Sequence record: SRR31156797_5308
DNA: 64,000 nt
Strand: one strand, 5' to 3'
This document shows positions 11,278 through 47,663 of this stretch, in pieces. How positions within the stretch are numbered: position 1 is the stretch's first letter; each line of letters begins with the position of its first letter. The translations under genes were made by a program, and so were the position numbers. The notes beneath the pieces are model-generated. The model searched no databases. It was not told the origin of the DNA and worked only from the letters and a program-made list of their open reading frames with translations.

Positions 11278-12372
11278 TTAGTTATTTTCGACCAATTTAA
11301 AACTTGACCAAGGTTTCAAAAATTCTAATAAGAATAGTTCCTCATCAGCGATCTTACCAACGACATTGACTCGACCATCATTTTTCATTGCTTTCAAGGC
11401 GATTTGCGTCTCCCCTTTGTATTGTCCATAGCCAGCATTATCGATCAAGACATCCCCTCTTACCATATCACGGGTATCATGAGGTGGAAATTCCTTGTCT
11501 TTATAATAGATCCGCGTCATCGTTGAACGCAAGATGTATTCCGAACGATCTCCTCGATAGCTGTGCAGATTATCGAAGAGACAAATTCGTTCATCTTCAG
11601 TGATTCCGTCAACGACATCGACTCTTAATGTCGGATAATCCGCGTGAAACGCTTCAGCCATTGCTGCCAATTCTGCTTCTGAAGCATAGGCATTTCCAAC
11701 AGAGATATCATCGATCAAACCCGTCAACACTAAATGTTTGACTTGCGTAGCTAGTGGCAGATCACGATGATCTTCCAAAGAGCATAAACCATCTTGTGTT
11801 GGCCATGGACCGAAATCAGCTTCGTGAGAATTCACGAAAGCCATCGTATTTAAATTGTATTTGCGGAATTTTTCCGAACAAAAAACGAAATGGTCGTAGC
11901 CCAACCCTGAATAGCGATGAGGATAGAAGTTATGCGAGCCGAGTAAATTTTCAGTATTAGGTGAATAACTCATGATGTTATCCACGTAGCTCGTACCACT
12001 GCTCATATTGATTTCGATTTTAATCCCGTAAGGATTACGCGTCATTTTGGCTTCTTCTGAACCAGTAAAACCAATATCTAACCGAACACCGTAAGCCCCC
12101 ATCTCATCAAAGAAGGATAAATCATCATAAGAAATACCTAGCTGTTCGAATAAACTAGGATTGATATCTACCATGACTTCCATTCCTAACTGATTGGCAT
12201 AATCCACGACTTGTTTAAAGTCTGCCAAGACTTTTTCTTTGTCATCGTTGATTTGCAGCAAACTGGTAAATACCCGTTTAAAGCCGTATTTGTGTGCCAA
12301 GTCTAAATACGCTTTGTCCTTTTCAAACGTTGAGCGCTCTGGATAAATCGATATCCCTAATTTTCCCATCAA
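11278..12372 (-). CDS. DUF871 / MupG-like TIM-barrel protein
   Basis: LGISIYP, VFTSL, RLDIGF, HNFYPHRYSGL, LEDHR. Confidence 0.88.
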   Translation of the reverse strand: MMGKLGISIYPERSTFEKDKAYLDLAHKYGFKRVFTSLLQINDDKEKVLADFKQVVDYANQLGMEVMVDINPSLFEQLGISYDDLSFFDEMGAYGVRLDIGFTGSEEAKMTRNPYGIKIEINMSSGTSYVDNIMSYSPNTENLLGSHNFYPHRYSGLGYDHFVFCSEKFRKYNLNTMAFVNSHEADFGPWPTQDGLCSLEDHRDLPLATQVKHLVLTGLIDDISVGNAYASEAELAAMAEAFHADYPTLRVDVVDGITEDERICLFDNLHSYRGDRSEYILRSTMTRIYYKDKEFPPHDTRDMVRGDVLIDNAGYGQYKGETQIALKAMKNDGRVNVVGKIADEELFLLEFLKPWSSFKLVENN

Positions 12373-12551
12373 AAAAACCTCCTGTAAATTCTATCCGTTT
12401 ATTATAATGAATCCTCTTTCATTATAACAAACATCTAAAAAGTGGTCTACACCTTTCCGCCTGTTTCTTTCTTATTCCACAAAATCTGCGCTTTCTTCTA
12501 TGTCTCTTTTTTGTTATGATTATCATTAAGAAAACTGGAAGGAATGAAAGA

Positions 12552-13301
12552 ATGAAAAAAATCCTATTCACACTGACAGCAGCTGCTAGCCTTTTATTAT
12601 TAGCTGCTTGTACAGGTTCAAGTACCACCGATCCCTCATCAAGCAATTCGGCAGAAAGCACGTCAACCTCAGAATCCGTTGACTTGAATGCCCTGGAATT
12701 GCCGCAATTATCAACGGATGTGCAAGAGAATGAAGCCTTAGTTGAAATGGTGACGGAAGAAGGCTCGATCAAAATCAAACTTTTCCCAGAGATTGCGCCC
12801 AAAGCAGTCGAAAACTTTTTGACCCATGCCAAAGATGGTTATTATGACGGCTTGACTTTCCATCGTGTCGTAGAAGAGTTTATGATCCAAGGGGGCGACC
12901 CTAATGGTGATGGCACTGGCGGAGAAAGCATATGGGGCGAAGGATTCGGCGAAGAATACTCGAACCAGCTTTATCACTTGCGAGGCGCATTGGCAATGGC
13001 AAAATCAAGTGCGCCAAACAGCCAAGGCAGTCAATTCTACATCGTTCAAAATGATCAAGACGTATCCGACGGTCTAGCGATCCAACACTATCCTGAAAAA
13101 ATCATCGAAGCCTACAAAAATGGTGGAACACCACAATTGGACGGTAGCTATACCGTTTTTGGTCAAGTGATCGAAGGCATGGATGTCGTAGATAAAATTG
13201 CGCAAGCAGAAACCCAAGACTCTGGCAATGGTGAGAATTCTCAACCGGTTGAGCCAGTGAAGATCGAAACGATCAAGGTCTTACAAGAAGCCAAAGAATA
13301 A
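12552..13301 (+). CDS. Cyclophilin-type peptidyl-prolyl isomerase lipoprotein
   Basis: Lipobox LAAC; FHRV, MIQGGDP, GALAMA, SQFYI, YTVFGQV; start MKKILF. Confidence 0.92.
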   Translation: MKKILFTLTAAASLLLLAACTGSSTTDPSSSNSAESTSTSESVDLNALELPQLSTDVQENEALVEMVTEEGSIKIKLFPEIAPKAVENFLTHAKDGYYDGLTFHRVVEEFMIQGGDPNGDGTGGESIWGEGFGEEYSNQLYHLRGALAMAKSSAPNSQGSQFYIVQNDQDVSDGLAIQHYPEKIIEAYKNGGTPQLDGSYTVFGQVIEGMDVVDKIAQAETQDSGNGENSQPVEPVKIETIKVLQEAKE

Positions 13302-13303
13302 AT

Positions 13304-13352
13304 AAAAAAACCGCTGAAGTCTCCGATACTCGGGAATTTCAGCGGTTTTCTT
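13304..13352. terminator. Bidirectional terminator
   Basis: AAAACCGCTGAA...TTCAGCGGTTTT. Confidence 0.75.
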
Positions 13353-13793
13353 TTACTTTTGGTCGCCTACGATAAAGGTAAATTCGCACTCAGCAGCTTT
13401 TTTGCCATCCACTGTCGCTACCGCATCAGCAGTTCCAACGGAGCCTTTGATTTTGGTGATCTCAAAAACAAGTTTCATAGTATCTCCCGGAACAACTTTT
13501 TGACGGAATTTGGCTTTGTTGATGCCGCCGATATACGCCGTTCTACCTTGGAATTCCTCGGATTTCAAGATCAGGATCGATCCTGCTTGTGCCAATGTTT
13601 CTAAAATCAAGGCACCCGGCATTACTGGATTTCCCGGAAAATGACCTTGGAAAAAGTCTTCGTTGATGGTAACATTTTTCGTTGCGATAATCTTTTTGCC
13701 AGACTCGATTTCATCGACATAATCAATATATATAATTGGGTAGCGATTTGGAATCAAATCCATGACTTCTGTTTCAGTCAATAGTTTTTTCAT
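13353..13793 (-). CDS. fabN: 3-hydroxyacyl-ACP dehydratase, probably the FabN (FabZ1) dehydratase/isomerase type
   Basis: IPNRYP, FFQGHFPGNPVMPG; divergent from fabI as in enterococci. Confidence 0.75.
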   Translation of the reverse strand: MKKLLTETEVMDLIPNRYPIIYIDYVDEIESGKKIIATKNVTINEDFFQGHFPGNPVMPGALILETLAQAGSILILKSEEFQGRTAYIGGINKAKFRQKVVPGDTMKLVFEITKIKGSVGTADAVATVDGKKAAECEFTFIVGDQK

Positions 13794-13824
13794 GGTTTCC
13801 CTTCCTTGCTTAAGAATTTATTAT

Positions 13825-13841
13825 AGTTTGATTATCAAAGT
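13825..13841. promoter_or_regulatory. FabT operator
   Basis: AGTTTGATTATCAAAGT palindrome. Confidence 0.75.
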
Positions 13842-13889
13842 ATCATAGTTCAGCGGAATTCGCAACTAAATATTTATTAAGAAAAAAAT

Positions 13890-13906
13890 AGTTTGACAAT
13901 CAAACA
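13890..13906. promoter_or_regulatory. FabT operator overlapping the fabI -35 (TTGACA 13893-13898)
   Basis: AGTTTGACAATCAAACA. Confidence 0.75.
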
Positions 13907-13999
13907 ATTATGCTTAATAATTAGAAATCAAGATAGTTTGATTTACTATTTGTCATTATACGTATTTTATTATTGTTGAATTTATTAAGGAGTGGAATT

Positions 14000-14755
14000 A
14001 TGAGTTTTTTAACCGGTAAAAAAGTTGTCGTCATGGGCGTTGCCAACAAACGCAGTATCGCTTGGGGCTGTGCACAAGCATTAAAAGCACAAGGAGCCGA
14101 AGTGATCTACACGTATCAAAACGACCGCATGAAGAAGCCATTAGAGCGCTTATTGGAATCTGATGAATTTGTAGTGGAATGTGACGTCGCTAATGACGAA
14201 AGCATTGCTGCCGCCTTTGATACAATCAAAGAATATGCTGGAGAGATCCATGGTGTCGTCCATGCCGTCGCTTATGCTAATAAAGAAGATCTCTCTGGCG
14301 ATATTTTGAATATTTCTCGTGACGGTTATGCTTTGGCGCAAGACATCAGCAGTTATTCATTGATTGCCGTCACTAAATATGCCAAACCAATCTTAGCTGA
14401 AAATGCTGGAATCGTTACCCTTTCCTACTTAGGTGCCGAACGGGCAGTACCAAACTACAACATGATGGGTATTGCGAAAGCTGCTTTGGAATCAAGTGTT
14501 CGCTATTTAGCTGCCGAACTTTCACCGCAAAAGATCCGTGTCAATGCGATTTCAGCTGGCGCCATCAAGACGCTGGCAGTAACTGGTGTAAAAGACTATC
14601 AAAAACTGATCCAATTGTCAGAGGATCGAACACCAGATCATATTGGAGTGACGATTGAAGAAGTCGGCAATGCTTGTGCCTTCTTGATCAGTCCTTTATC
14701 AAGCGGGATTATCGGCGAAGTGATTTTTGTTGATAAAGGCGTTCATTTATCTTAA
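14000..14755 (+). CDS. fabI: Enoyl-ACP reductase FabI
   Basis: GVANKRSIAWG, YNMMGIAKAALES, AGAIKTLA; ATG at 14000 after AAGGAG. Confidence 0.95.
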   Translation: MSFLTGKKVVVMGVANKRSIAWGCAQALKAQGAEVIYTYQNDRMKKPLERLLESDEFVVECDVANDESIAAAFDTIKEYAGEIHGVVHAVAYANKEDLSGDILNISRDGYALAQDISSYSLIAVTKYAKPILAENAGIVTLSYLGAERAVPNYNMMGIAKAALESSVRYLAAELSPQKIRVNAISAGAIKTLAVTGVKDYQKLIQLSEDRTPDHIGVTIEEVGNACAFLISPLSSGIIGEVIFVDKGVHLS

Positions 14756-14902
14756 TCAATGATTGTCATAGAAAAGTCTGCTGTTTGCCTACCCGTTGGC
14801 TGAGCAGGCTTTTTCTGAAAAAAACAGGTATTTCAGAAAACCTCCTTTGCATTTCTATTTTATCTTCGTTAAAATAGATGCAGTAAGACTTGGAGGGATT
14901 TT

Positions 14903-15820
14903 ATGAAACAACTGCTACTCGCAGCTAGCACGACCGATTCAAGTGGTTCCAGCATTACCGAACCAGCAGCTGCTCAGCTCAATGCGTTGCAAAAATGGTG
15001 GGCGTCCATCGACTGGGAATCGATCATTGGTCTACTGATTCAAAAAGCATTGATGTTGCTTTTTTTATGTATCCTATTCGGTATTTTATTGAAAATAAGC
15101 AATATGATCATCGATCGGATCTATCGTTCCTATGAAAAAAAAGCCAGTTTCAATGTGAGTCGAATCAACACGATCCATACCCTGATCCGCAATACGGTTC
15201 ATTACACATTAGGCTTCTTTTTTGTCTATGCACTCCTTTCAACCATCGGCGTACCTGTAGGCTCTCTATTAGCAGGTGCTGGAGTCGTCGGTGTCGCACT
15301 TGGTTTAGGCGCCCAAGGTTTTATGAACGACTTGATTACTGGCTTCTTTATTATTACCGAGCAACAAATCAATGTTGGTGATTACGTCCGCTTGACCAAT
15401 CTGACGCTTGAAGGTACGGTGACGGCAGTCGGTATTCGGACTGTTCAATTAAAATCCGTTGATGGAACCGTTCATTATATCCCAAATCGTAACATCACGA
15501 CCATCAGTAATACATCAAGAGCCAATATGCAAGTCGTGGTCGACGTACGTATCTTACCATCTGAAGGCTTAGATGAAATACGTGCCATCATTGAAGAAGT
15601 CAATGAACAGATTGCTCAGCAGCATGAAGAAGAGATTCAAACGGCCCCTACGGTCTTCGGTTTAGTGGATCTGGGGAACAACAACTTTGCAATTCGTACG
15701 ACCATGTATGTGACCAACGGTACGCAATGGAAAATCAAAGAGGAATTTTTGGCCGCATCGATCGATGCTTTAACTGCCAAAGGCTATACGATCCCCAATG
15801 CGCCGATCGTCGGTATTTAA
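14903..15820 (+). CDS. Small-conductance mechanosensitive channel (MscS/YkuT-like)
   Basis: GAGVVGVALGLGAQ..DLITGFF..VGDYV..IPN. Confidence 0.92.
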   Translation: MKQLLLAASTTDSSGSSITEPAAAQLNALQKWWASIDWESIIGLLIQKALMLLFLCILFGILLKISNMIIDRIYRSYEKKASFNVSRINTIHTLIRNTVHYTLGFFFVYALLSTIGVPVGSLLAGAGVVGVALGLGAQGFMNDLITGFFIITEQQINVGDYVRLTNLTLEGTVTAVGIRTVQLKSVDGTVHYIPNRNITTISNTSRANMQVVVDVRILPSEGLDEIRAIIEEVNEQIAQQHEEEIQTAPTVFGLVDLGNNNFAIRTTMYVTNGTQWKIKEEFLAASIDALTAKGYTIPNAPIVGI

Positions 15821-15854
15821 AAAAGGTTATCCCGAAGCTGGGATAACCTTTTTT

Positions 15855-16358
15855 CTATACCACATGCAGTTCATCTGTCATCTTTGGGGCATCCTCTTTC
15901 GAAATCAGCAAATAGCGTCTTTCAATTTCGTGCGCCAAATGATTGACGGATTTTAAAATCTCTTTGCGGGTGATAATCCCAACAAAGACATTGTCATCAT
16001 CAACGATCGGCAAGAATGCTTGATCTACTAACAAATGCAGCATACTTTCCAACTCATCGTTTTCTTTGATGCAATTCACATTGACTTCCATGACATCTGC
16101 CACAGTCAGCCCTTCAATATTTTCCATACTGAAGCCAGTGAGATCCATCATGCGTTCTACGATGTTTGAGAGGCTGATTAAGCCGACTAAATGGTCCTCA
16201 CTATCTAGTACAGGGATCTTTGAATAGCCCACTTTTGATAAAACAAGCAATGCGTGACTCAAAGGGTGGTTATAAAATACCGATGCCACATTTTCTGCCG
16301 GCACCAAGAAATTTTCTTGGTTCTCGAGTAATATTTTTTCTACGGTCTGTCCTATCAA
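15855..16358 (-). CDS. cbpB: Tandem CBS domain protein (YkuL/CbpB c-di-AMP-binding family)
   Basis: HALLVLSKVGYSKIPVLD, FLPIVD, GIITRKEILK; TTG start after GGAGG. Confidence 0.8.
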   Translation of the reverse strand: MIGQTVEKILLENQENFLVPAENVASVFYNHPLSHALLVLSKVGYSKIPVLDSEDHLVGLISLSNIVERMMDLTGFSMENIEGLTVADVMEVNVNCIKENDELESMLHLLVDQAFLPIVDDDNVFVGIITRKEILKSVNHLAHEIERRYLLISKEDAPKMTDELHVV

Positions 16359-16467
16359 TCTAATTGCCTCCATTTCACAGCTACTCTTCTATTTTACTTG
16401 AAAATGAGAATAGAAAGTAGAAACCTGCAGAATTATAATGAAATTTTTACTTTTTGATTCCGCTTAC

Positions 16468-16980
16468 TTAGCGTGTGAAAACAAAAGCTAGCTCAGGGAC
16501 TTTATGAAAGGAACGATCATAGTATTGGATTGCCCATTGTTTTGGCGTACTTTCGATAATCGCAAAGCTTTTGATTTGAATTTGCCCTCGCGGTTGGGAA
16601 ATACTGCCGGGATTCAAGAAAAGTCGATTCCCGACTTTCTCACAAGCAATTTGATGCGTGTGACCAAACAGTGCGACCGAGGCATCGGCTTGTTGCGCTT
16701 GCAGCCCTAATTTCGTTACACCAAAACGGACATCTGCTAAGTGGCCATGAGTCATATAGATGGTGTCCAGCGGCGTTTTGATGATACGCTCATTGGGAAA
16801 ACCACCGCCATAATCGCAATTGCCGCAAACGACTTGAAAAGTATCCCACAAAGGGTCTGTGTCAGGTAGTTCGGAGTCCCCACAGTGCAGGAATAAATCG
16901 ACTTGATTTTCGAATTCATTTTTAAGATCAACAAGAATCTCACGATCTGAATGATTGTCACTGACAACTAAATATTTCAT
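16468..16980 (-). CDS. YsnB-family metallophosphoesterase
   Basis: SDNH, HCGD, GNCD, THGH, GHTH, NPGS. Confidence 0.92.
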
Positions 16981-40322: not shown

Positions 40323-42260
40323 TTATGCTTCTGGCAGTTTACGCAAAAGACGTAACCCGTTAAACAATACGATCAATGTACTGCCTTCATGGGCAAATAC
40401 CCCCAACCCAATGTTCATCATGCCGAATAGATTCAAGCCGACTAATAACGCGACGATAAACATGGAGAAAAAAATATTTTGCCAAATGATCCGATCCATC
40501 TTCTTCGCTAAGCGATAGGCATATGCAAAACGCGAAAGATCATTCTTCATGATCACTGCGTCTCCTACTTCAATCGCAACATCTGACCCTTCCCCCATCG
40601 CAAAGCCGATGTCTGCTTGAACAAGTGCAGGGGCATCATTGATACCATCACCCACCATGGCGGTTTGTCCGTATGCTTCTTGGAGTGCTCGTACCGCTTC
40701 CGCTTTGTTCTCAGGCAAAACATTGGCAGCCACTTGGTCAACCTTTAAGCGCTGACCGATTGCTTCACCAGCAGAAGCACTGTCTCCGGTGATCATAACA
40801 GTATGGATACCTTCATTTTTCAAATAATGAATCACAGAAGCTGCCTGTTCGTTCGGCTCATCCATCAATGCGATGATCGCCGTAACCTCTTCGTTGATGG
40901 AAAACACGACCATTGTTTTTCCTTGCGCTTCCAATTGACGGTACTGTTGCTCCATCAAACCTGTTAACTGGGTGTTTTCGGTTCTTTTTCCTAATCGATA
41001 GGTTTTTGTTCCTGCGACGGCACCTAAACCGGAACCAATCTCGTTTGTGACAGTCAACTGTTCGATTTCTCGTATTTTCTCTGTCTTCTCGAAATAAGTA
41101 ACGATCGCATCTGCTAATGGGTGGTTGGCTTGCTTTTCCATCGAAACGATGACCGCTGCTGCCTCTGCTCGATCGATCGTATCAACGAAAACGGCTTCCG
41201 TGACTGTAGGTTTTCCGACGGTCAAAGTTCCCGTTTTGTCAAAAGCCACCGCTTTGATCTGAGCGAAATTGGTCAAGTAATTGCTCCCTTTAAAAAGAAT
41301 CCCTTTTTTCGCTAGATTCGAGATCGCCGATAAACTAGCAGGGACGGCGCTTGCCGCTAAAGCACAAGGAGAAGCCGCAATCATCATTACGATCCCACGA
41401 TAAAAACTTGTATACCAATCCCAACCAAAGAGAAACGGTGCAGTCAAAATGAACAAAGGAACTGCAATGAAAACAACTGTTACATAGATTGGTTCGATTT
41501 TTTTGATTCGTGTTTCGGTCGGTGATTGATTTGATTGCGCCGCTTCCACCACTGAAAGAATTTTTGCGAAGACTGTTTCAGAGCTGTCTTTCGTGACTTC
41601 CATCAAAAATGTGCCGTTTCCATTAATCGTACTCCCATAGACTTCGTCTCCTGTAGTCTTTTCTCGAGGAATACTTTCCCCATTGATCGAAGCTTCATTG
41701 ATGGCACTCGTTCCAGAAAGGATTACGCCATCTGTTGCTAACTGATCACCAGGTAGCACTTGCAAAATATCTCCTTTTTTTATCTCAGAAGCGGCAATTT
41801 TTTGGGTTTTCCCATCCGGACCCATCAAACGGGCTTCCGTGGGATTCAATTTGAGAAGATTGGTGATTTCTCTTCGACTTTGTCCCTCGGCGTATTCTTC
41901 TAAGAAGTGAGCGCCTGCAAAAATCAAAATCAACAAAGCTGCTTCATTAAAATTTCCTATGACCATGGAACCAATCGCTGCCAACAACATCAAAAGATGT
42001 ACATTCGGTGTGAATCGCCGATTGGCTCTGGTACTCTTTATGGTATCCTCGATTCCTTCCCACGAAATGTGATAACCTGCTAATAAAACCGCAGCAAAAT
42101 AAAACCCATCTTTCACCCATTGGTTCGGAACAAAAAGTGCCAGTATAAAGAGCAGTAAGCCTACAAAATAAATGTTACGTGGGAGAGTCCCATGATCGTG
42201 AGTATGAGAATGCCCCTCCGTTTTTGTGTGATCATGTTGACAAGTATGTTCAGCCATCAT
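40323..42260 (-). CDS. Heavy-metal P1B-type ATPase (SPC motif, P1B-4-like)
   Basis: His-rich N-terminus, ASPCAL, DKTGT, HP, GDGINDAP, HEGST. Confidence 0.92.
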   Translation of the reverse strand: MMAEHTCQHDHTKTEGHSHTHDHGTLPRNIYFVGLLLFILALFVPNQWVKDGFYFAAVLLAGYHISWEGIEDTIKSTRANRRFTPNVHLLMLLAAIGSMVIGNFNEAALLILIFAGAHFLEEYAEGQSRREITNLLKLNPTEARLMGPDGKTQKIAASEIKKGDILQVLPGDQLATDGVILSGTSAINEASINGESIPREKTTGDEVYGSTINGNGTFLMEVTKDSSETVFAKILSVVEAAQSNQSPTETRIKKIEPIYVTVVFIAVPLFILTAPFLFGWDWYTSFYRGIVMMIAASPCALAASAVPASLSAISNLAKKGILFKGSNYLTNFAQIKAVAFDKTGTLTVGKPTVTEAVFVDTIDRAEAAAVIVSMEKQANHPLADAIVTYFEKTEKIREIEQLTVTNEIGSGLGAVAGTKTYRLGKRTENTQLTGLMEQQYRQLEAQGKTMVVFSINEEVTAIIALMDEPNEQAASVIHYLKNEGIHTVMITGDSASAGEAIGQRLKVDQVAANVLPENKAEAVRALQEAYGQTAMVGDGINDAPALVQADIGFAMGEGSDVAIEVGDAVIMKNDLSRFAYAYRLAKKMDRIIWQNIFFSMFIVALLVGLNLFGMMNIGLGVFAHEGSTLIVLFNGLRLLRKLPEA

Positions 42261-42285
42261 TAAAACCTCCTCTAGTCCATCTGTC

Positions 42286-42345
42286 ATATGAACGATCAAT
42301 CATATTTATAGACTTATTATATATGAATAAACAATCATATGTCAA
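42286..42345 (-). promoter_or_regulatory. ATPase promoter with two ArsR/SmtB (CzrA-like) operators
   Basis: ATATGA-N8-TCATAT at 42286-42305 and 42321-42340; TTGACA(42340-42345)-18bp-TATAAT(42316-42321) on the - strand. Confidence 0.75.
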
Positions 42346-42441
42346 CCGAAAGAAGTTTTTCTTGTGAAATGTAAGCGTTTTGGGTTTTGTGATTCCTTAT
42401 GGCATGCTAGAATAAACTTAGGAGAGAAAGGAGTGTTGGTT

Positions 42442-43779
42442 ATGAGAACATTTACTGGCGGTATTTCACTAAGTCCCCCATTAAAAATGTTAAAAGAAAA
42501 ATTAATGATCGAACAAGATGAAATTCTTACCTTTTCACCCACGATGGTCTTTATCCCTTTAGCACAACATATTGGTGCTCCGGTGGAACCGATTGTTTCC
42601 GTTGGTGATTACGTCAAGCAAGGGCAAGTGATCGCTGAGTCTGATGCGTTTGTATCTGCCAAAATTCATGCATCTGTTTCGGGTAAAATCGTCGACATGG
42701 TCGATTGGCCGAATCAAAACAATGAAGAAGGAAAAACCATCATCATTGAAAATGATTATGCTTATCAAAATGATTTTTTGTCAGCCCCCTTCGACTGGCA
42801 ATCTGCTGCTAACGAAACCATCCTCAACAAAATCCGTCAAGGCGGCGTCGCCGGCAAAGGCGGTGCAACGTTTCCCACCCATGTCAAATTCAGTATTGAT
42901 GAAACCAAAAAAATCCATACTTTGATCTTAAATGGTTCTGAATGTGAACCGTTCTTACGCAGTGATGCTTTCTTAATGCAAAAAGAAGCCCAGAAAATCA
43001 TTCACGGTGCAAAGATTGCCCAAAAGTTACTGGATGGTCCAAAAATCATAATAGGCATCGAAGATGACAAACCAAGAGCCATTTCAGCCATGCAAGCCGC
43101 AAGTGCAGAGGATGACACGATAGAAGTCGTTACTGTCCCAACTGTTTATCCAACCGGTGGTGAAAAGCAGTTAGTAGAGTTATTGACCGATCAAGAGGTG
43201 CCGTTAGGTGGTTTGACTGCCGATATCGGTATCGTCTTGATCAATGTTGCCACCAGCTTTGCCATCGGCGAAGCGGTCTGTTATGACAAACCGTTGATTG
43301 AACGCTATACAACCGTTACCGGCGATGTTCAAAATCCCTGCATCGTCAAAAATCCGTTAGGAACACTCGCAGGAGAATTGATCGACTTTGCCGGCGGCTT
43401 TCAAGGAGCCCCCAGCAAATTGATTCTTGGTGGACCAATGATGGGAAAATCCGTCAAAACCTTGAAAGTTCCGGTCACCAAAGGCAGCAACGGCATCGTT
43501 GTTTTTAATGAAGAAACCGATTGGCTCTATGCCGAAAACCCCTGTATTCGCTGCAACAAATGTGTCGAAGCTTGTCCAATGCGCCTCATGCCAATGGAGA
43601 TCGATCAGTTTTATCGAGCGGGGGATTATCAAAAGTGTGAAGAATTATTGGCAGAAGCATGTATCAATTGTGGTGCCTGTACCTTCGTCTGCCCAGCTAA
43701 ACGTTCCTTAGCTGCCAATATCACTGCCGCAAAAGGCAAAGTTGCCCAGTTGCAAAAGGAGGCGAAGGAAAGTGCCTGA
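42442..43779 (+). CDS. rnfC: RnfC/RsxC-family NADH-oxidising FMN / 2x[4Fe-4S] subunit
   Basis: QHIGAP, IHASVSG, GKGGATFPTH, NGSECEP, YPTGGE, GGPMMG, CIRCNKCVEACP and CINCGACTFVCP; start MRTF after AAGGAG. Confidence 0.93.
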   Translation: MRTFTGGISLSPPLKMLKEKLMIEQDEILTFSPTMVFIPLAQHIGAPVEPIVSVGDYVKQGQVIAESDAFVSAKIHASVSGKIVDMVDWPNQNNEEGKTIIIENDYAYQNDFLSAPFDWQSAANETILNKIRQGGVAGKGGATFPTHVKFSIDETKKIHTLILNGSECEPFLRSDAFLMQKEAQKIIHGAKIAQKLLDGPKIIIGIEDDKPRAISAMQAASAEDDTIEVVTVPTVYPTGGEKQLVELLTDQEVPLGGLTADIGIVLINVATSFAIGEAVCYDKPLIERYTTVTGDVQNPCIVKNPLGTLAGELIDFAGGFQGAPSKLILGGPMMGKSVKTLKVPVTKGSNGIVVFNEETDWLYAENPCIRCNKCVEACPMRLMPMEIDQFYRAGDYQKCEELLAEACINCGACTFVCPAKRSLAANITAAKGKVAQLQKEAKESA

Positions 43780-44842
43780 TTATTACAAGGATTCCGATAG
43801 CGAACGTCTCTTTCAGCAAAGGAAAAATCAAGAAACACCCCCAAGCCCCCATATTCGCAGCAATGACGAGACCATTAAAATCATGGGGTGTGTGGTATTA
43901 GCCTTGCTGCCAGCAGTTTTATTCTCTGGCTACCTTTTTGGATTGAAAGTTTATGGCTTGTTTTTCATTGCACTAGCCACGGCGTTTGCTGCCGACGGAC
44001 TTTGGTCCTATCTTGTCAAACGGCCGTTTCGCTTCGATTTAAGCATCGTCGTGACGGCCTTGCTTTTAACGATGAACCTCCCACCAACCGCACCTTGGTA
44101 TTTTCCCGTGATTGGGGTGGCGTTTGCCGTAATCATCGTCAAAGAATTTTTTGGCGGTATTGGTTATAATTTTCTAAATCCAGCCCTCGGCGGTCGAGCC
44201 CTGTTGATTGGCTTGTTTTATAACCAAATGTTTCTAATGAGTTGGCCTGATCCACCTTTTGGCAGCATCGCACCTGATGTCGTTTCGCAGGCTACAGCGA
44301 ACGATGTTGTTTCTGGTGCCACACCATTAGCTGTCATGAAAGCAGGAGAAACGTTGAGTGGCTCTGAACTAGTGGATGCCTTTTTAGGATTTACCGGAGG
44401 ACGAATCGGTGAAACCAGTGCCTTACTTTTACTGTTGGGTGGGATTTTTCTCGTTTACAAGAAAATCATCTCCCCTCGTATCCCACTGATTATCTTTGCG
44501 ACGATCGGGCTCTTTGCTTTTATCCTTGGTCCAGAAGGACTTTTTACTGGCAGTTGGCAAACGGTCATCGGTCATATCATCAGTGGTGGTGCCATGTTGG
44601 GTGCGATTTATATGGCGACTGATTATTCTTCGACACCAGGAACAAAAGCAGGAGAAAATCTTTTTGCCTTAGGCGTTGGCCTCCTCGTTGTGCTCTTCCG
44701 TTTCTTTGGTTTTACAAATGAAGGCATGAGCTATGCCATCTTGATCATGAATTGTTTCACCCCACTTATTGATCGCTTCTTACGCCTTCGCATATTAGGG
44801 GAAGGAAAAAAGACCCCGTTCAACCTTAAAATCATGAGCTAA
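43772..44842 (+). CDS. rnfD: RnfD/RsxD-family flavinylated membrane subunit
   Basis: SPHI, FGGIGYNFLNPA, SGATPL FMN site, GRIGETS, MATDYSSTP, YAILIMN; GTG start after AAGGAGG. Confidence 0.92.
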   Translation: MPDYYKDSDSERLFQQRKNQETPPSPHIRSNDETIKIMGCVVLALLPAVLFSGYLFGLKVYGLFFIALATAFAADGLWSYLVKRPFRFDLSIVVTALLLTMNLPPTAPWYFPVIGVAFAVIIVKEFFGGIGYNFLNPALGGRALLIGLFYNQMFLMSWPDPPFGSIAPDVVSQATANDVVSGATPLAVMKAGETLSGSELVDAFLGFTGGRIGETSALLLLLGGIFLVYKKIISPRIPLIIFATIGLFAFILGPEGLFTGSWQTVIGHIISGGAMLGAIYMATDYSSTPGTKAGENLFALGVGLLVVLFRFFGFTNEGMSYAILIMNCFTPLIDRFLRLRILGEGKKTPFNLKIMS

Positions 44843-44865
44843 ATCGTAAAAAAGGAGGGTTCCTT

Positions 44866-45438
44866 ATGATGATCGCCAATCGGCTAGTGGTCTTTCTAGT
44901 CATTCTACTCACAAATTACGCCTGTCAAAATTTGGCACCGACCGTCAAAGAGAAAAAACCGAACGTGACGACACGGGTGGTTTTCCTCTCAGGGATCATT
45001 GCGGTCGCTTACTTGTTCAGTGGGTTAAGCTTTTATCTTTTACTTCAAAATCGTTTCGTCTATGGCAATCAAGTGGTCACCAACTTGGTAAGTGCTGCCA
45101 TCATCGCCTTGATTGCGGGGGGCTTGTGTTTACTGATCGTTCCTGCAAAAAAACGTTTCTTGACGACTGATCTAAAAAAAACGCTCCTAGTCAATGTTCT
45201 CTTGCTGACGATCGCCACCGTGACCCAATTTCCCTATACCGATTATTTAACCAATTTATTTGTTGCTGTAGGCATGTATTTCCTCTTTTCTTGTGCTTTG
45301 TCAGGGGTTCATACACGGAATCAAATTGCCACGATTCCGCCAATTCTAAAAGGTTTACCGCTGGATATCGTAACACTTTTTCTATTCTATCTAAGCTTTT
45401 CCTTTCTCAATGGTGTCTTCTTCAATTATTTATTCTAA
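44866..45438 (+). CDS. Divergent RnfA-like membrane protein
   Basis: ~6 TM; C-terminus GVHTRNQIATIPPILKGLPLDIVTLFLFYLSF resembles RnfA GIRER..VP..FKGLPIALIT..LMSLAF; operonic position. Confidence 0.7.
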   Translation: MMIANRLVVFLVILLTNYACQNLAPTVKEKKPNVTTRVVFLSGIIAVAYLFSGLSFYLLLQNRFVYGNQVVTNLVSAAIIALIAGGLCLLIVPAKKRFLTTDLKKTLLVNVLLLTIATVTQFPYTDYLTNLFVAVGMYFLFSCALSGVHTRNQIATIPPILKGLPLDIVTLFLFYLSFSFLNGVFFNYLF

Positions 45439-45474
45439 ACAAAAAGCAAGTCCCGCTTTGGCAGCGGAACTTGC

Positions 45475-45672
45475 TTATTTTTTGCGGAATAACTCTCTGA
45501 AGGAACCGATCAAAAAACCAGTCGAAAAAGCATTTTGTGCTTTTTGCTCTTTTTCAGCAGCGATTTTTTGTCGGGTTCGCAGCCCCTTATTGGCATTTTT
45601 GGACTTCTTCCCTTCACGGAGTTCTTTCGAAACCTTTTGAAACTCATTTGAGAAACGATTATACCCAACCAT
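45475..45672 (-). CDS. Small basic protein (65 aa)
   Basis: Strong RBS AAAGGAGG; Lys/Arg-rich with an amphipathic C-terminal helix. Confidence 0.7.
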   Translation of the reverse strand: MVGYNRFSNEFQKVSKELREGKKSKNANKGLRTRQKIAAEKEQKAQNAFSTGFLIGSFRELFRKK

Positions 45673-46714: not shown

Positions 46715-47260
46715 TTAGTGCCCTTCGCTGTCTTTATTTGGATAGTAGTGTTGGAAAAGTCGCAGAAAAATCGGTGCCAGCATCAAATAAAAGATGCCAT
46801 TCCCCGCTGCATGCAACGCATCAAAGCTCACTCCTTGAAAATAGTAAGCCCCAAAGCTAGGAAACCCATAAAGCTTGACACTGATCCAAGATATCACAAA
46901 GCCATACGCAAAACCTGCAAATACACTATAAATGACTTGTAAATACAACTTTTTCATAAACAGTTTGCTTTTTGATAATAGATACATTCCAAAAATTACG
47001 ACGGCATAGCTAATCAATTGGGCAATCGTCCATACCCCCATTCCCATGTAAAAATTGGTAATCAGCATCGAGAGCAGACAAACGATCAATCCACGACTAA
47101 GACCTAAATGGATGGTTACTAATAAAAAGATCACCGTCATTGGTTGAACATTGGGTAAAGGTTGAAAAAGTGTCCTGCCGACGACGGCTGCTGCTACAAG
47201 CAACCCTAAATAAGCAATTTCTTTTCCAGCAAATACAAGTGGTTTATTCGAATTTTTCAT
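46715..47260 (-). CDS. ECF transporter S component, CbrT-like (cobalamin)
   Basis: VVGRTLFQPLPNVQPMT, GMGVWT..Q, FDALHAAGN motifs. Confidence 0.8.
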   Translation of the reverse strand: MKNSNKPLVFAGKEIAYLGLLVAAAVVGRTLFQPLPNVQPMTVIFLLVTIHLGLSRGLIVCLLSMLITNFYMGMGVWTIAQLISYAVVIFGMYLLSKSKLFMKKLYLQVIYSVFAGFAYGFVISWISVKLYGFPSFGAYYFQGVSFDALHAAGNGIFYLMLAPIFLRLFQHYYPNKDSEGH

Positions 47261-47663
47261 AGGTGAAAACCACTTTATCGTTGTTTCCTAAAAAGGTATC
47301 ATCTGCCCCAGTCGTAATCATTTCATCATTGATCGTATATGTCCAATAATAGCCAGCTTTTTCATCTTGGGCTAAACCGTCGATGCTGGTGATCATCCCT
47401 TGATTTTCTTCCAAGTCAAAGTTCTCTTTCATGATAGTCATCAAAGAAACCCCTTCTTTAAAAGTGACCGTTTTGGTTTCGATCTCCTGGTCTTGCTCTT
47501 CACTTTTATTATTGAAGCTGATTTGGGCAGTGCGCTCTTCGGCATTTTGTTGGACTGACGAAGAGTCACTAGAGGAGTTACCCGCATCCATCGATGGTTT
47601 GGCACATCCGGCAAAAACCAGACTTAGTAAAAAAATATAACTAAAAATTACTGTTTTCTTCAT
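47244..47663 (-). CDS. DUF4430 (transcobalamin-like C-terminal domain) lipoprotein
   Basis: Lipobox FAGC; MITSIDG...YWTYTIND...GAD. Confidence 0.85.
   Translation of the reverse strand: MKKTVIFSYIFLLSLVFAGCAKPSMDAGNSSSDSSSVQQNAEERTAQISFNNKSEEQDQEIETKTVTFKEGVSLMTIMKENFDLEENQGMITSIDGLAQDEKAGYYWTYTINDEMITTGADDTFLGNNDKVVFTYEKFE

Follow-up and report, generated by a model that had tools for sequence, protein, structure and literature searches.

A three-gene rnfC-rnfD operon of Enterococcaceae with a cofactor-less RnfA-derived partner: a candidate ferredoxin-independent link between NAD(H) and the outer face of the membrane

The mechanism of the canonical Rnf complex (RnfABCDGE; 7ZC6, 9ERI, 8AHX), as it is set out in two published accounts, requires all six subunits (PMC12174285; PMC9588780). 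Here we describe a three-gene operon, rnfC-rnfD-gene 3, in a 64,000-nt stretch of enterococcal DNA from sequence record SRR31156797_5308 (hereafter, the window), which has no RnfB, RnfE or RnfG and thus falls short of the six-subunit complement. Its RnfA-like subunit is devoid of both cysteine ligands, so that with neither an intramembrane [2Fe-2S] centre nor a ferredoxin arm the enterococcal unit cannot be a ferredoxin:NAD+ oxidoreductase. On the strength of sequence comparisons we propose, with middling confidence, that it is a ferredoxin-independent RnfC-RnfD module accompanied by a cofactor-less RnfA-derived partner, which would link cytoplasmic NAD(H) to an outer covalent flavin mononucleotide (FMN) of RnfD.

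A similar idea has been put forward for the NQR/RNF-like system (Meheust et al. 2021, PMC8238504; PMC10979944), a partial Nqr/Rnf with a single transmembrane path. According to these reports it occurs mainly in Actinobacteria and the candidate phyla radiation (CPR) and combines an FMN_bind protein with a fusion of an NqrB/RnfD domain and a NAD-binding PF00175 domain of the NqrF type; one-way electron transfer from NAD(P)H to the outside was proposed for it, and its RnfD flavinylation site was later reported to be unconserved (PMC8238504; PMC10979944). The enterococcal RnfD, in contrast, has no such fused domain, the operon contains no FMN_bind gene, and the unit is set apart by its separate RnfC for NADH, its invariant flavinylation site and its RnfA relic. 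In Na+-NQR (NqrABCDEF), NADH enters via NqrF and NqrA is without cofactors, whereas the enterococcal unit keeps an RnfC of the type with FMN and iron-sulfur (Fe-S) clusters; NqrC, NqrD and NqrF are missing from it, and a quinone acceptor is doubtful. The 'noncanonical Rnf' of Treponema pallidum (tp0147-tp0153; Deka et al. 2015), as described in PMC4436053, is alike in that only RnfC, RnfD and one RnfE/A-like protein are recognisable, but it comprises seven co-transcribed genes, among which further divergent subunits may hide, against three in our unit. Its RnfD is reported there to have no readily identifiable flavinylation motif (PMC4436053), whereas the motif of the enterococcal RnfD is clear, the two being compared by description only. 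With the flavin-based extracellular electron transfer (EET) locus of Listeria and Enterococcus, which comprises Ndh2, EetA/EetB, FmnA/FmnB, PplA and DmkA/B (DmkA being of the UbiA type) (PMC9973259), the unit has maturation genes in common, ApbE/FmnB and an EetB-family gene standing beside it in genomes G011 and G012 only. The route given for that locus leads from NADH through Ndh2 and demethylmenaquinone to PplA (PMC9973259); none of these carriers is encoded in the enterococcal operon, and the three-gene unit occurs also without PplA-type proteins and without UbiA prenyltransferases. In a literature search of sources other than subscription journals, we found no publication describing the enterococcal three-gene unit, PMC4014512 and PMC7074142 being silent on it.

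The operon was first noticed in a preliminary description of the window made from the letters alone, and the three intact, tightly packed open reading frames (ORFs) reported there, on one strand and each with a ribosome-binding site, are present. rnfC (42442-43779, plus strand; 445 aa, from the ORF listing) begins with an ATG that follows AAAGGAG at a distance of 8 nt. For rnfD (43772-44842, plus strand; 356 aa) the most likely start codon is GTG 43772, which gives an overlap of 8 nt with the rnfC stop and has the ribosome-binding site AAAGGAGG 9 nt upstream, and gene 3 (44866-45438, plus strand; 190 aa, six transmembrane helices) has AAGGAGGG 6 nt before its start.

The identification of the first two genes as rnfC and rnfD holds, since both products exceed curated cut-offs and keep their cofactor motifs. 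RnfC scores 470.6 bits with TIGR01945 (cut-off 245.95) and contains the NADH/FMN-binding domain Complex1_51K (PF01512, 155.9 bits), RnfC_N (PF13375, 92.2 bits), SLBB and 4Fe-4S families. In the window it bears two CxxCxxCxxxCP 4Fe-4S motifs, at residues 368 and 407, both of which are kept in 29/29 loci containing that part of rnfC. An assignment to PrdC, the proline-reductase-associated RnfC-like protein, was tried and rejected (TIGR04481, 210.4 bits, equivalog cut-off 490). RnfD scores 256.8 bits with TIGR01946 (cut-off 207.05) and 327.7 bits with PF03116, the sole Pfam family that it matches. It carries the ApbE covalent-FMN motif D-x-x-S-G-A-T with residue 184 as the predicted acceptor threonine, and this threonine is invariant in all 30 RnfD rows compared (the window and 29 loci, frameshifted L045 being excluded). 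At residues 167-184 (44270-44323) the motif, in the form D-x-x-[ST]-x-A-T, is doubled in tandem as DVVSQAT-AN-DVVSGAT. The extra 9-residue copy is found in the clade of the window and partly in a few other clades, and is absent from about half of the RnfDs of three-gene units; a second flavin may be attached at this copy.

The third gene has no Pfam and no NCBIfam match at E ≤ 0.01, and so is not placed in PF02508 (Rnf-Nqr); its earlier label of 'RnfA-like' is nevertheless upheld by profile and fold comparison. A profile built from ten relatives matches exactly four Protein Data Bank (PDB) sequences, all of them RnfA or NqrE (9eri_A, E 4.2e-6; 7zc6_A, 1.4e-4; 8ahx_A, 2.2e-3; 7xk3_E, 7.3e-3). 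With a 28-sequence profile, hhalign gives an alignment to enterococcal canonical RnfA at a probability of 91% and E 1.1e-6, running end to end (columns 8-185 against 8-190), while the same profile does not align with RnfE of the same enterococcal canonical operons (probability 0.2%). An AlphaFold model of gene 3 (local distance difference test score as predicted, pLDDT, 82.7; predicted template modelling score, pTM, 0.80) has six long helices. A Foldseek search with this model gave no hit at E ≤ 0.001, RnfA and NqrE chains topping the list, and the fold assignment rests on VIA-align and the profile comparisons. By profile and predicted fold, gene 3 is RnfA-derived and nearer to RnfA than to RnfE. 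In the ESM Atlas the clusters nearest to it, at 0.88-0.90, are RnfA-like proteins of Spirochaetota without a Pfam match, which we take as leads only.

What gene 3 has lost is the metal site. As described for the canonical complex, RnfA has two invariant cysteines at helix breaks (Cys25 and Cys113 in C. tetanomorphum), and the intramembrane iron-sulfur centre is held by two RnfA and two RnfE cysteines (PMC9588780; PMC12174285). Where enterococcal RnfA has its GICPF and TNC stretches, the hhalign alignment shows gaps in gene 3, and no invariant Cys or His column exists among the 28 sequences of the gene 3 family. With both RnfA cysteine motifs lost, the protein, which is without the two [2Fe-2S]-ligating cysteines, cannot carry the [2Fe-2S] cluster or electrons, and the RnfE partner is missing as well.

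What gene 3 has kept lies mainly at its C-terminus. Mean column conservation is 0.69 over residues 147-190, the C-terminal loop and helix that are still common with RnfA, against 0.44 over residues 1-146. Lysine and arginine are distributed one-sidedly in the 28 sequences, with a median of 7 (4-10) in loops 1, 3 and 5 and of 1 (0-2) on the opposite side, which indicates one fixed predicted topology with both termini outside. Both termini outside is also the orientation of RnfA and NqrE. An antiparallel homodimer of gene 3 in place of RnfA plus RnfE was considered and is ruled out by this one-sidedness, seen in 28/28 sequences. In the C. tetanomorphum Rnf structure (7ZC6), as reported, helix V of RnfD is touched by the C-terminal RnfA helix close to a proposed Na+ site (PMC9588780). 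Given this contact and the conservation of the corresponding helix in gene 3, we infer by analogy that gene 3 may have been retained as a partner of RnfD, for docking or gating.

The three-gene unit is recurrent and confined to one family. Within 134 Enterococcaceae genomes, RnfD occurs in 67 and the gene 3 family in 30, always directly after rnfC-rnfD; RnfA/E over the cut-off is found in 28, as an adjacent gene pair in 26 of them. Canonical RnfA/E is absent from 21/30 three-gene carriers, the other nine having both systems. As an operon the unit is intact in 28/30 species genomes, across 8/17 genera. An exhaustive profile search for gene 3 among 1.84 billion representatives returned 37 proteins at E ≤ 0.001, 16 of them at E ≤ 1e-10, and the named relatives are all from Enterococcus, Tetragenococcus or Enterococcaceae, with 95% identity in E. 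casseliflavus and 93-96% in E. innesii. In an order-wide sample the same profile found 12/63 Enterococcaceae genomes against 0/338 genomes from eight other families. A tree of 47 RnfDs, computed without an outgroup and midpoint-rooted for drawing only, unites the 30 from three-gene units in one group (support 100/99), apart from 12 canonical RnfDs (97/96) and from five two-gene RnfDs.

Substitution patterns agree with a unit conserved under purifying selection, as shown by dN/dS (NG86, pairs with 0.05 < dS < 1.5) in the sequences compared. For RnfD the median ratio is 0.075 (n=14 pairs), with 0.054 for the pair G011/G012. For gene 3 the median is 0.131 (n=15 pairs); nine unsaturated pairs give 0.049-0.212, and the remaining six are saturated (dN 0.76-1.03, ratios 0.52-0.74). 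The relaxed selection that the preliminary description had allowed for is thus not what either the RnfD median or the unsaturated gene 3 pairs point to. The check that it proposed, whether the unit recurs with low dN/dS in other Lactobacillales, gives 30/134 genomes and low ratios in Enterococcaceae and 0/338 genomes in the other families sampled.

The absence of further subunits was checked in the window and in G001, the nearest genome, with 86% of sampled words in common. Among the 59 non-nested ORFs of at least 100 aa in the window, three of which are the operon's own genes, a profile scan found no further Rnf family. G001 has one RnfD; in it there is no RnfA/E (best PF02508 match 12.6 bits, cut-off 23.8), no RnfB (best TIGR01944 match 22.3 bits, cut-off 68.7) and no FMN_bind protein of RnfG size, its four FMN_bind matches lying solely in ORFs of 976, 814 and 319 aa, the last of which has two domains and adjoins ApbE. 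The same genome has three ApbE genes. RnfA/E over the cut-off is found in 0/8 genomes of the window's genus. We conclude that rnfB, rnfE and rnfG, reported as missing from the start, are found neither in the rest of the window nor in G001, and that only the NADH arm of Rnf is present, as a real and conserved three-gene unit.

Genes for flavin maturation bear on what the outer face of RnfD may carry. FMN_bind domains occur in 126/134 family genomes, and the eight without them include the three-gene carriers G011, G012 and G059 (99-100% complete) and the two-gene carrier G026, all four of which have ApbE despite the lack of FMN_bind; from G004, RnfD, FMN_bind and ApbE are all three missing. In both G011 and G012 a divergent apbE is followed by a NusG_II-domain gene, a PF07456 gene and rnfC-rnfD-gene 3, in this order. 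PF07456 is the EetB family, described as the substrate-binding subunit of a flavin adenine dinucleotide (FAD) exporter feeding ApbE, and eetB is reported to be found at the same loci as eetA, apbE and Rnf genes (PMC9973259). Each of the carrier genomes tested (5/5) has EetB-family genes. apbE, which had been named as a gene to look for, thus flanks the unit together with an eetB-type gene in two genomes, and because RnfD is the only recognised flavinylation target in both of these, the arrangement supports the prediction that RnfD bears a functional outward-facing covalent FMN. The same genomes speak to the partner of this flavin. With three carriers (G011, G012 and G059) lacking any FMN_bind domain, an RnfG-like FMN-binding partner is not required, and hand-off to a flavinylated lipoprotein, as suggested in the preliminary description, cannot be obligatory. 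In G059, a genome without FMN_bind, contig C45 contains at ~11500-16700 an EET-like cluster (an EetB family gene, ApbE and a UbiA prenyltransferase), which by its gene content looks like an EET locus without a PplA-type flavoprotein.

A UbiA-family prenyltransferase (PF01040) was found in 7/10 tested carriers, G001 included, and at E ≤ 0.001 PF01040 finds nothing in G008, G009 and G025, carriers of 99-100% completeness. Carriers without a UbiA prenyltransferase argue against a prenylated quinone as acceptor; judged from gene content, the outer-face partner does not need to be one and probably is not. The menA model TIGR00751 finds 0/134 genomes over its cut-off, so it cannot decide on the presence or absence of quinone.

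Put together, the explanation that we favour would work as follows. RnfC would form the cytoplasmic part, with its NADH/FMN site and two 4Fe-4S clusters, and RnfD the membrane part, to which ApbE would attach one FMN covalently at the outer side, the FAD for this reaction being delivered by the EetB-type exporter. By comparison with solved Rnf structures, electrons would pass from NADH to the FMN of RnfC, on through two [4Fe-4S] clusters and to riboflavin and FMN in RnfD, and the path would join NAD(H) in the cytoplasm to the membrane's outer face with no ferredoxin involved. By way of its conserved C-terminal helix, the RnfA relic, free of iron-sulfur, would serve RnfD as a partner in docking or in an ion path. 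The most likely acceptor or donor on the outer face would be a small acceptor, soluble or extracellular, or else a protein that has escaped recognition.

A number of observations weigh against this explanation. In the solved Rnf structure, as reported, the FMN of RnfD is completely encapsulated (PMC9588780), so that a direct exit of electrons to a soluble acceptor would need a change, and no neighbour gene conserved across the 30 loci points to an acceptor. Gene 3 is interrupted in 2/30 loci: by one in-frame TGA in G012 (L046), and in G062 (L045, L098; 96.4% identity to the window) by one of three 1-nt deletions, the other two lying in rnfD and rnfC being intact. These lesions may be early decay or assembly errors. 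G001, in which the missing subunits were sought, stands in for the window's own genome and is one step removed from it. The evidence from RNA libraries consists of contigs. Runs with 0.89-0.93 of the operon's sampled words number 18, and four were aligned to 7.8 kb around the operon. X1 has a 3107-nt contig over 42411-45517 at a depth of 22.3, with flanks at 0-3 (stretches without cover in this run being no evidence of silence), and X7 has a contig over 42399-45409 at a depth of 116.7 with neighbouring contigs of lower depth; this match to the bounds of the operon gives a weak hint of a tricistronic transcript. X10 and X2, on the other hand, each have one contig over the entire 7.8 kb, indistinguishable from DNA, and contigs from RNA libraries are no proof of where a transcript starts or ends or of its strand; the runs, too, may stem from one campaign.

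Among the rival explanations, the nearest in kind is that RnfD passes its electrons in trans to an RnfG-like FMN-binding domain, in a PplA-type lipoprotein or in a large flavinylated extracellular reductase. We regard this as unlikely, and as equally unlikely the part of the same reading in which the unit becomes a second, quinone-independent input to flavin-based EET. The RnfG flavin is described as the natural partner of the RnfD FMN in canonical Rnf (PMC12174285), and suitable domains abound, with four FMN_bind matches in G001 and FMN_bind in nearly the whole family (126/134). It is the exceptions that tell against the route: G011, G012 and G059, at least 99% complete, keep the unit without FMN_bind, with an RnfD dN/dS of 0.054 in the G011/G012 pair, and at none of the 30 loci does an FMN_bind gene adjoin the unit within the stretches examined. 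Where such proteins exist, the route could still be used. Less likely again, and in our view improbable, is a miniature NQR, in which NADH electrons leave the riboflavin site of RnfD to membrane (demethyl)menaquinone, possibly with ion pumping. Such a transfer has a precedent in NqrB, the homologue of RnfD, which is described as passing electrons from riboflavin to quinone (PMC12174285), and UbiA-family prenyltransferases exist in G001 and six other tested carriers; it is opposed by the 3/10 tested carriers (G008, G009, G025) without a PF01040 match and by the N-terminal amphipathic helices that make up the quinone pocket of NqrB, which according to the same account are absent from RnfD generally (PMC12174285). 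Moreover, a miniature NQR leaves the outer covalent-FMN threonine, present in 30/30 rows, unexplained.

The two remaining alternatives would deprive the unit of a role of its own. That its products are spare or alternative parts, which would be built into a normal ferredoxin:NAD+ Rnf together with canonical RnfG, RnfE, RnfA and RnfB from genes elsewhere, could be imagined for the 9/30 carriers that also have a canonical rnf operon; with no RnfA/E over the cut-off in 21/30 carriers or in 8/8 genomes of the window's genus, no RnfB in G001 (TIGR01944, 22.3 bits at best against 68.7) and the three-gene RnfDs in a clade apart from canonical RnfD, we consider it very improbable. Equally hard to credit is a decaying, functionless remnant of an ancestral Rnf. 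Three missing subunits, the lost cofactor ligands of gene 3 and disruption in 2/30 loci are what such a remnant would look like, but RnfD and gene 3 have low dN/dS, RnfC and RnfD retain every cofactor motif, the operon is intact in 28/30 species genomes and 8/17 genera, and RNA-library contigs match its bounds. We retain the ferredoxin-independent RnfC-RnfD module with its RnfA-derived partner as the best explanation.

The terminator placed directly after the third gene by the preliminary description was confirmed as a GC-rich hairpin at 45444-45483 (both strands) with 14 pairs in its stem, 45444-45476. The terminator scan lists this hairpin on the minus strand, and on the plus-strand side the sequence then reads TATTTTTT; being flanked by T-runs in both directions, it can end both convergent transcripts. 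A convergent ORF of 65 aa (45475-45672, minus strand), lysine-rich, with its own AGGAGGG ribosome-binding site and without a Pfam match, shares this hairpin. The upstream promoter that had also been described was not recovered: the promoter scan lists none on the plus strand upstream of rnfC, where inspection by eye finds only a weak, possible extended -10 element, TGcTAGAAT (42405-42413, plus strand). The first positions of the RNA-library contigs, 42411 in X1 and 42399 in X7, give a weak hint in its favour. A consensus sigma-70 promoter lies on the minus strand at 42345-42316 (TTGACA, 18-nt spacer, TATAAT; 12/12 match), a placement that fits the gene for a heavy-metal-type P-type ATPase, divergent from the operon, at 40323-42299.

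The remainder of the window consists of ordinary chromosomal housekeeping genes (pheST, addAB, obg, recJ and others). At 46715-47663 (minus strand), 1.2 kb downstream of the operon, a gene for a DUF4430 lipoprotein (79.9 bits) overlaps one for a membrane protein resembling the S-component of energy-coupling factor (ECF) transporters (PF12822, 27.2 bits, under the cut-off of 30.7). Across the 30 loci, the genes downstream of the unit vary and are mostly convergent, with a short-chain dehydrogenase (SDR), an FGGY kinase, an ABC ATPase, YfhO, a chromate transporter and others among them. In two genomes a short-chain dehydrogenase gene (L041:715-1479 and L044:2086-2853) stands ~18 nt beyond gene 3 in the same orientation, and there it may be a fourth cistron.

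Beyond the three-gene form, RnfC-RnfD modules are common in the order. In the sample of 401 Lactobacillales genomes, RnfD is found in 64, distributed over five families (31/63, 26/51, 4/62, 2/26 and 1/36), and canonical RnfA/E in 7/401, all Enterococcaceae. Bare rnfC-rnfD pairs with no third gene occur within Enterococcaceae too (L060-L063, L075), and five loci from four other families are all bare pairs. The strict flavinylation pattern is matched by 6/11 two-gene RnfDs and not by the other 5/11. In the family with RnfD in 26/51 genomes, some members have two rnfC-rnfD pairs 2.6 kb apart (L099). In another family, at L103:6270-7796, a gene for a secreted LPMO_10 (AA10) protein with CBM5/12 and fn3 domains stands 131 nt after rnfC-rnfD on the same strand; AA10 lytic polysaccharide monooxygenases need an external electron donor, and this adjacency is a single case. 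The operon of the window, first presented as an oddity of one enterococcus, is rather one subtype of a broader RnfC-RnfD-only phenomenon in Lactobacillales, marked out by its RnfA relic.

A wider claim we put forward tentatively, as possible more than probable: RnfC-RnfD modules without RnfG, RnfE, RnfA and RnfB may be a widespread, unrecognised class of NADH-linked transmembrane conduits in lactic acid bacteria, of which the three-gene form would take electrons from NADH to the outside independently of quinone and RnfG, perhaps translocating ions via RnfD with the cofactor-less RnfA as gate partner. The unit also bears on a dispute over where the Na+/H+ path of these complexes runs, which one view places in RnfD/NqrB (PMC9588780; Hau et al. 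2023 as summarised in PMC12174285) and another in the RnfA/E pair (Kumar et al. 2025, as summarised in PMC12174285). As it keeps RnfD and the shell of RnfA, without RnfE, RnfG, RnfB or the iron-sulfur centre, the RnfD path becomes directly testable, and if the reading is true, the unit would be a natural minimal system in which the ion path through RnfD is separated from that through RnfA/E. For annotation, 'Rnf' in enterococci and other lactic acid bacteria mostly means two- or three-gene remnants of the NADH arm and not the textbook ferredoxin:NAD+ pump. If active, these modules would give fermenting Gram-positive bacteria a new way to move reducing power across the membrane, beside the route through Ndh2, quinone and PplA.

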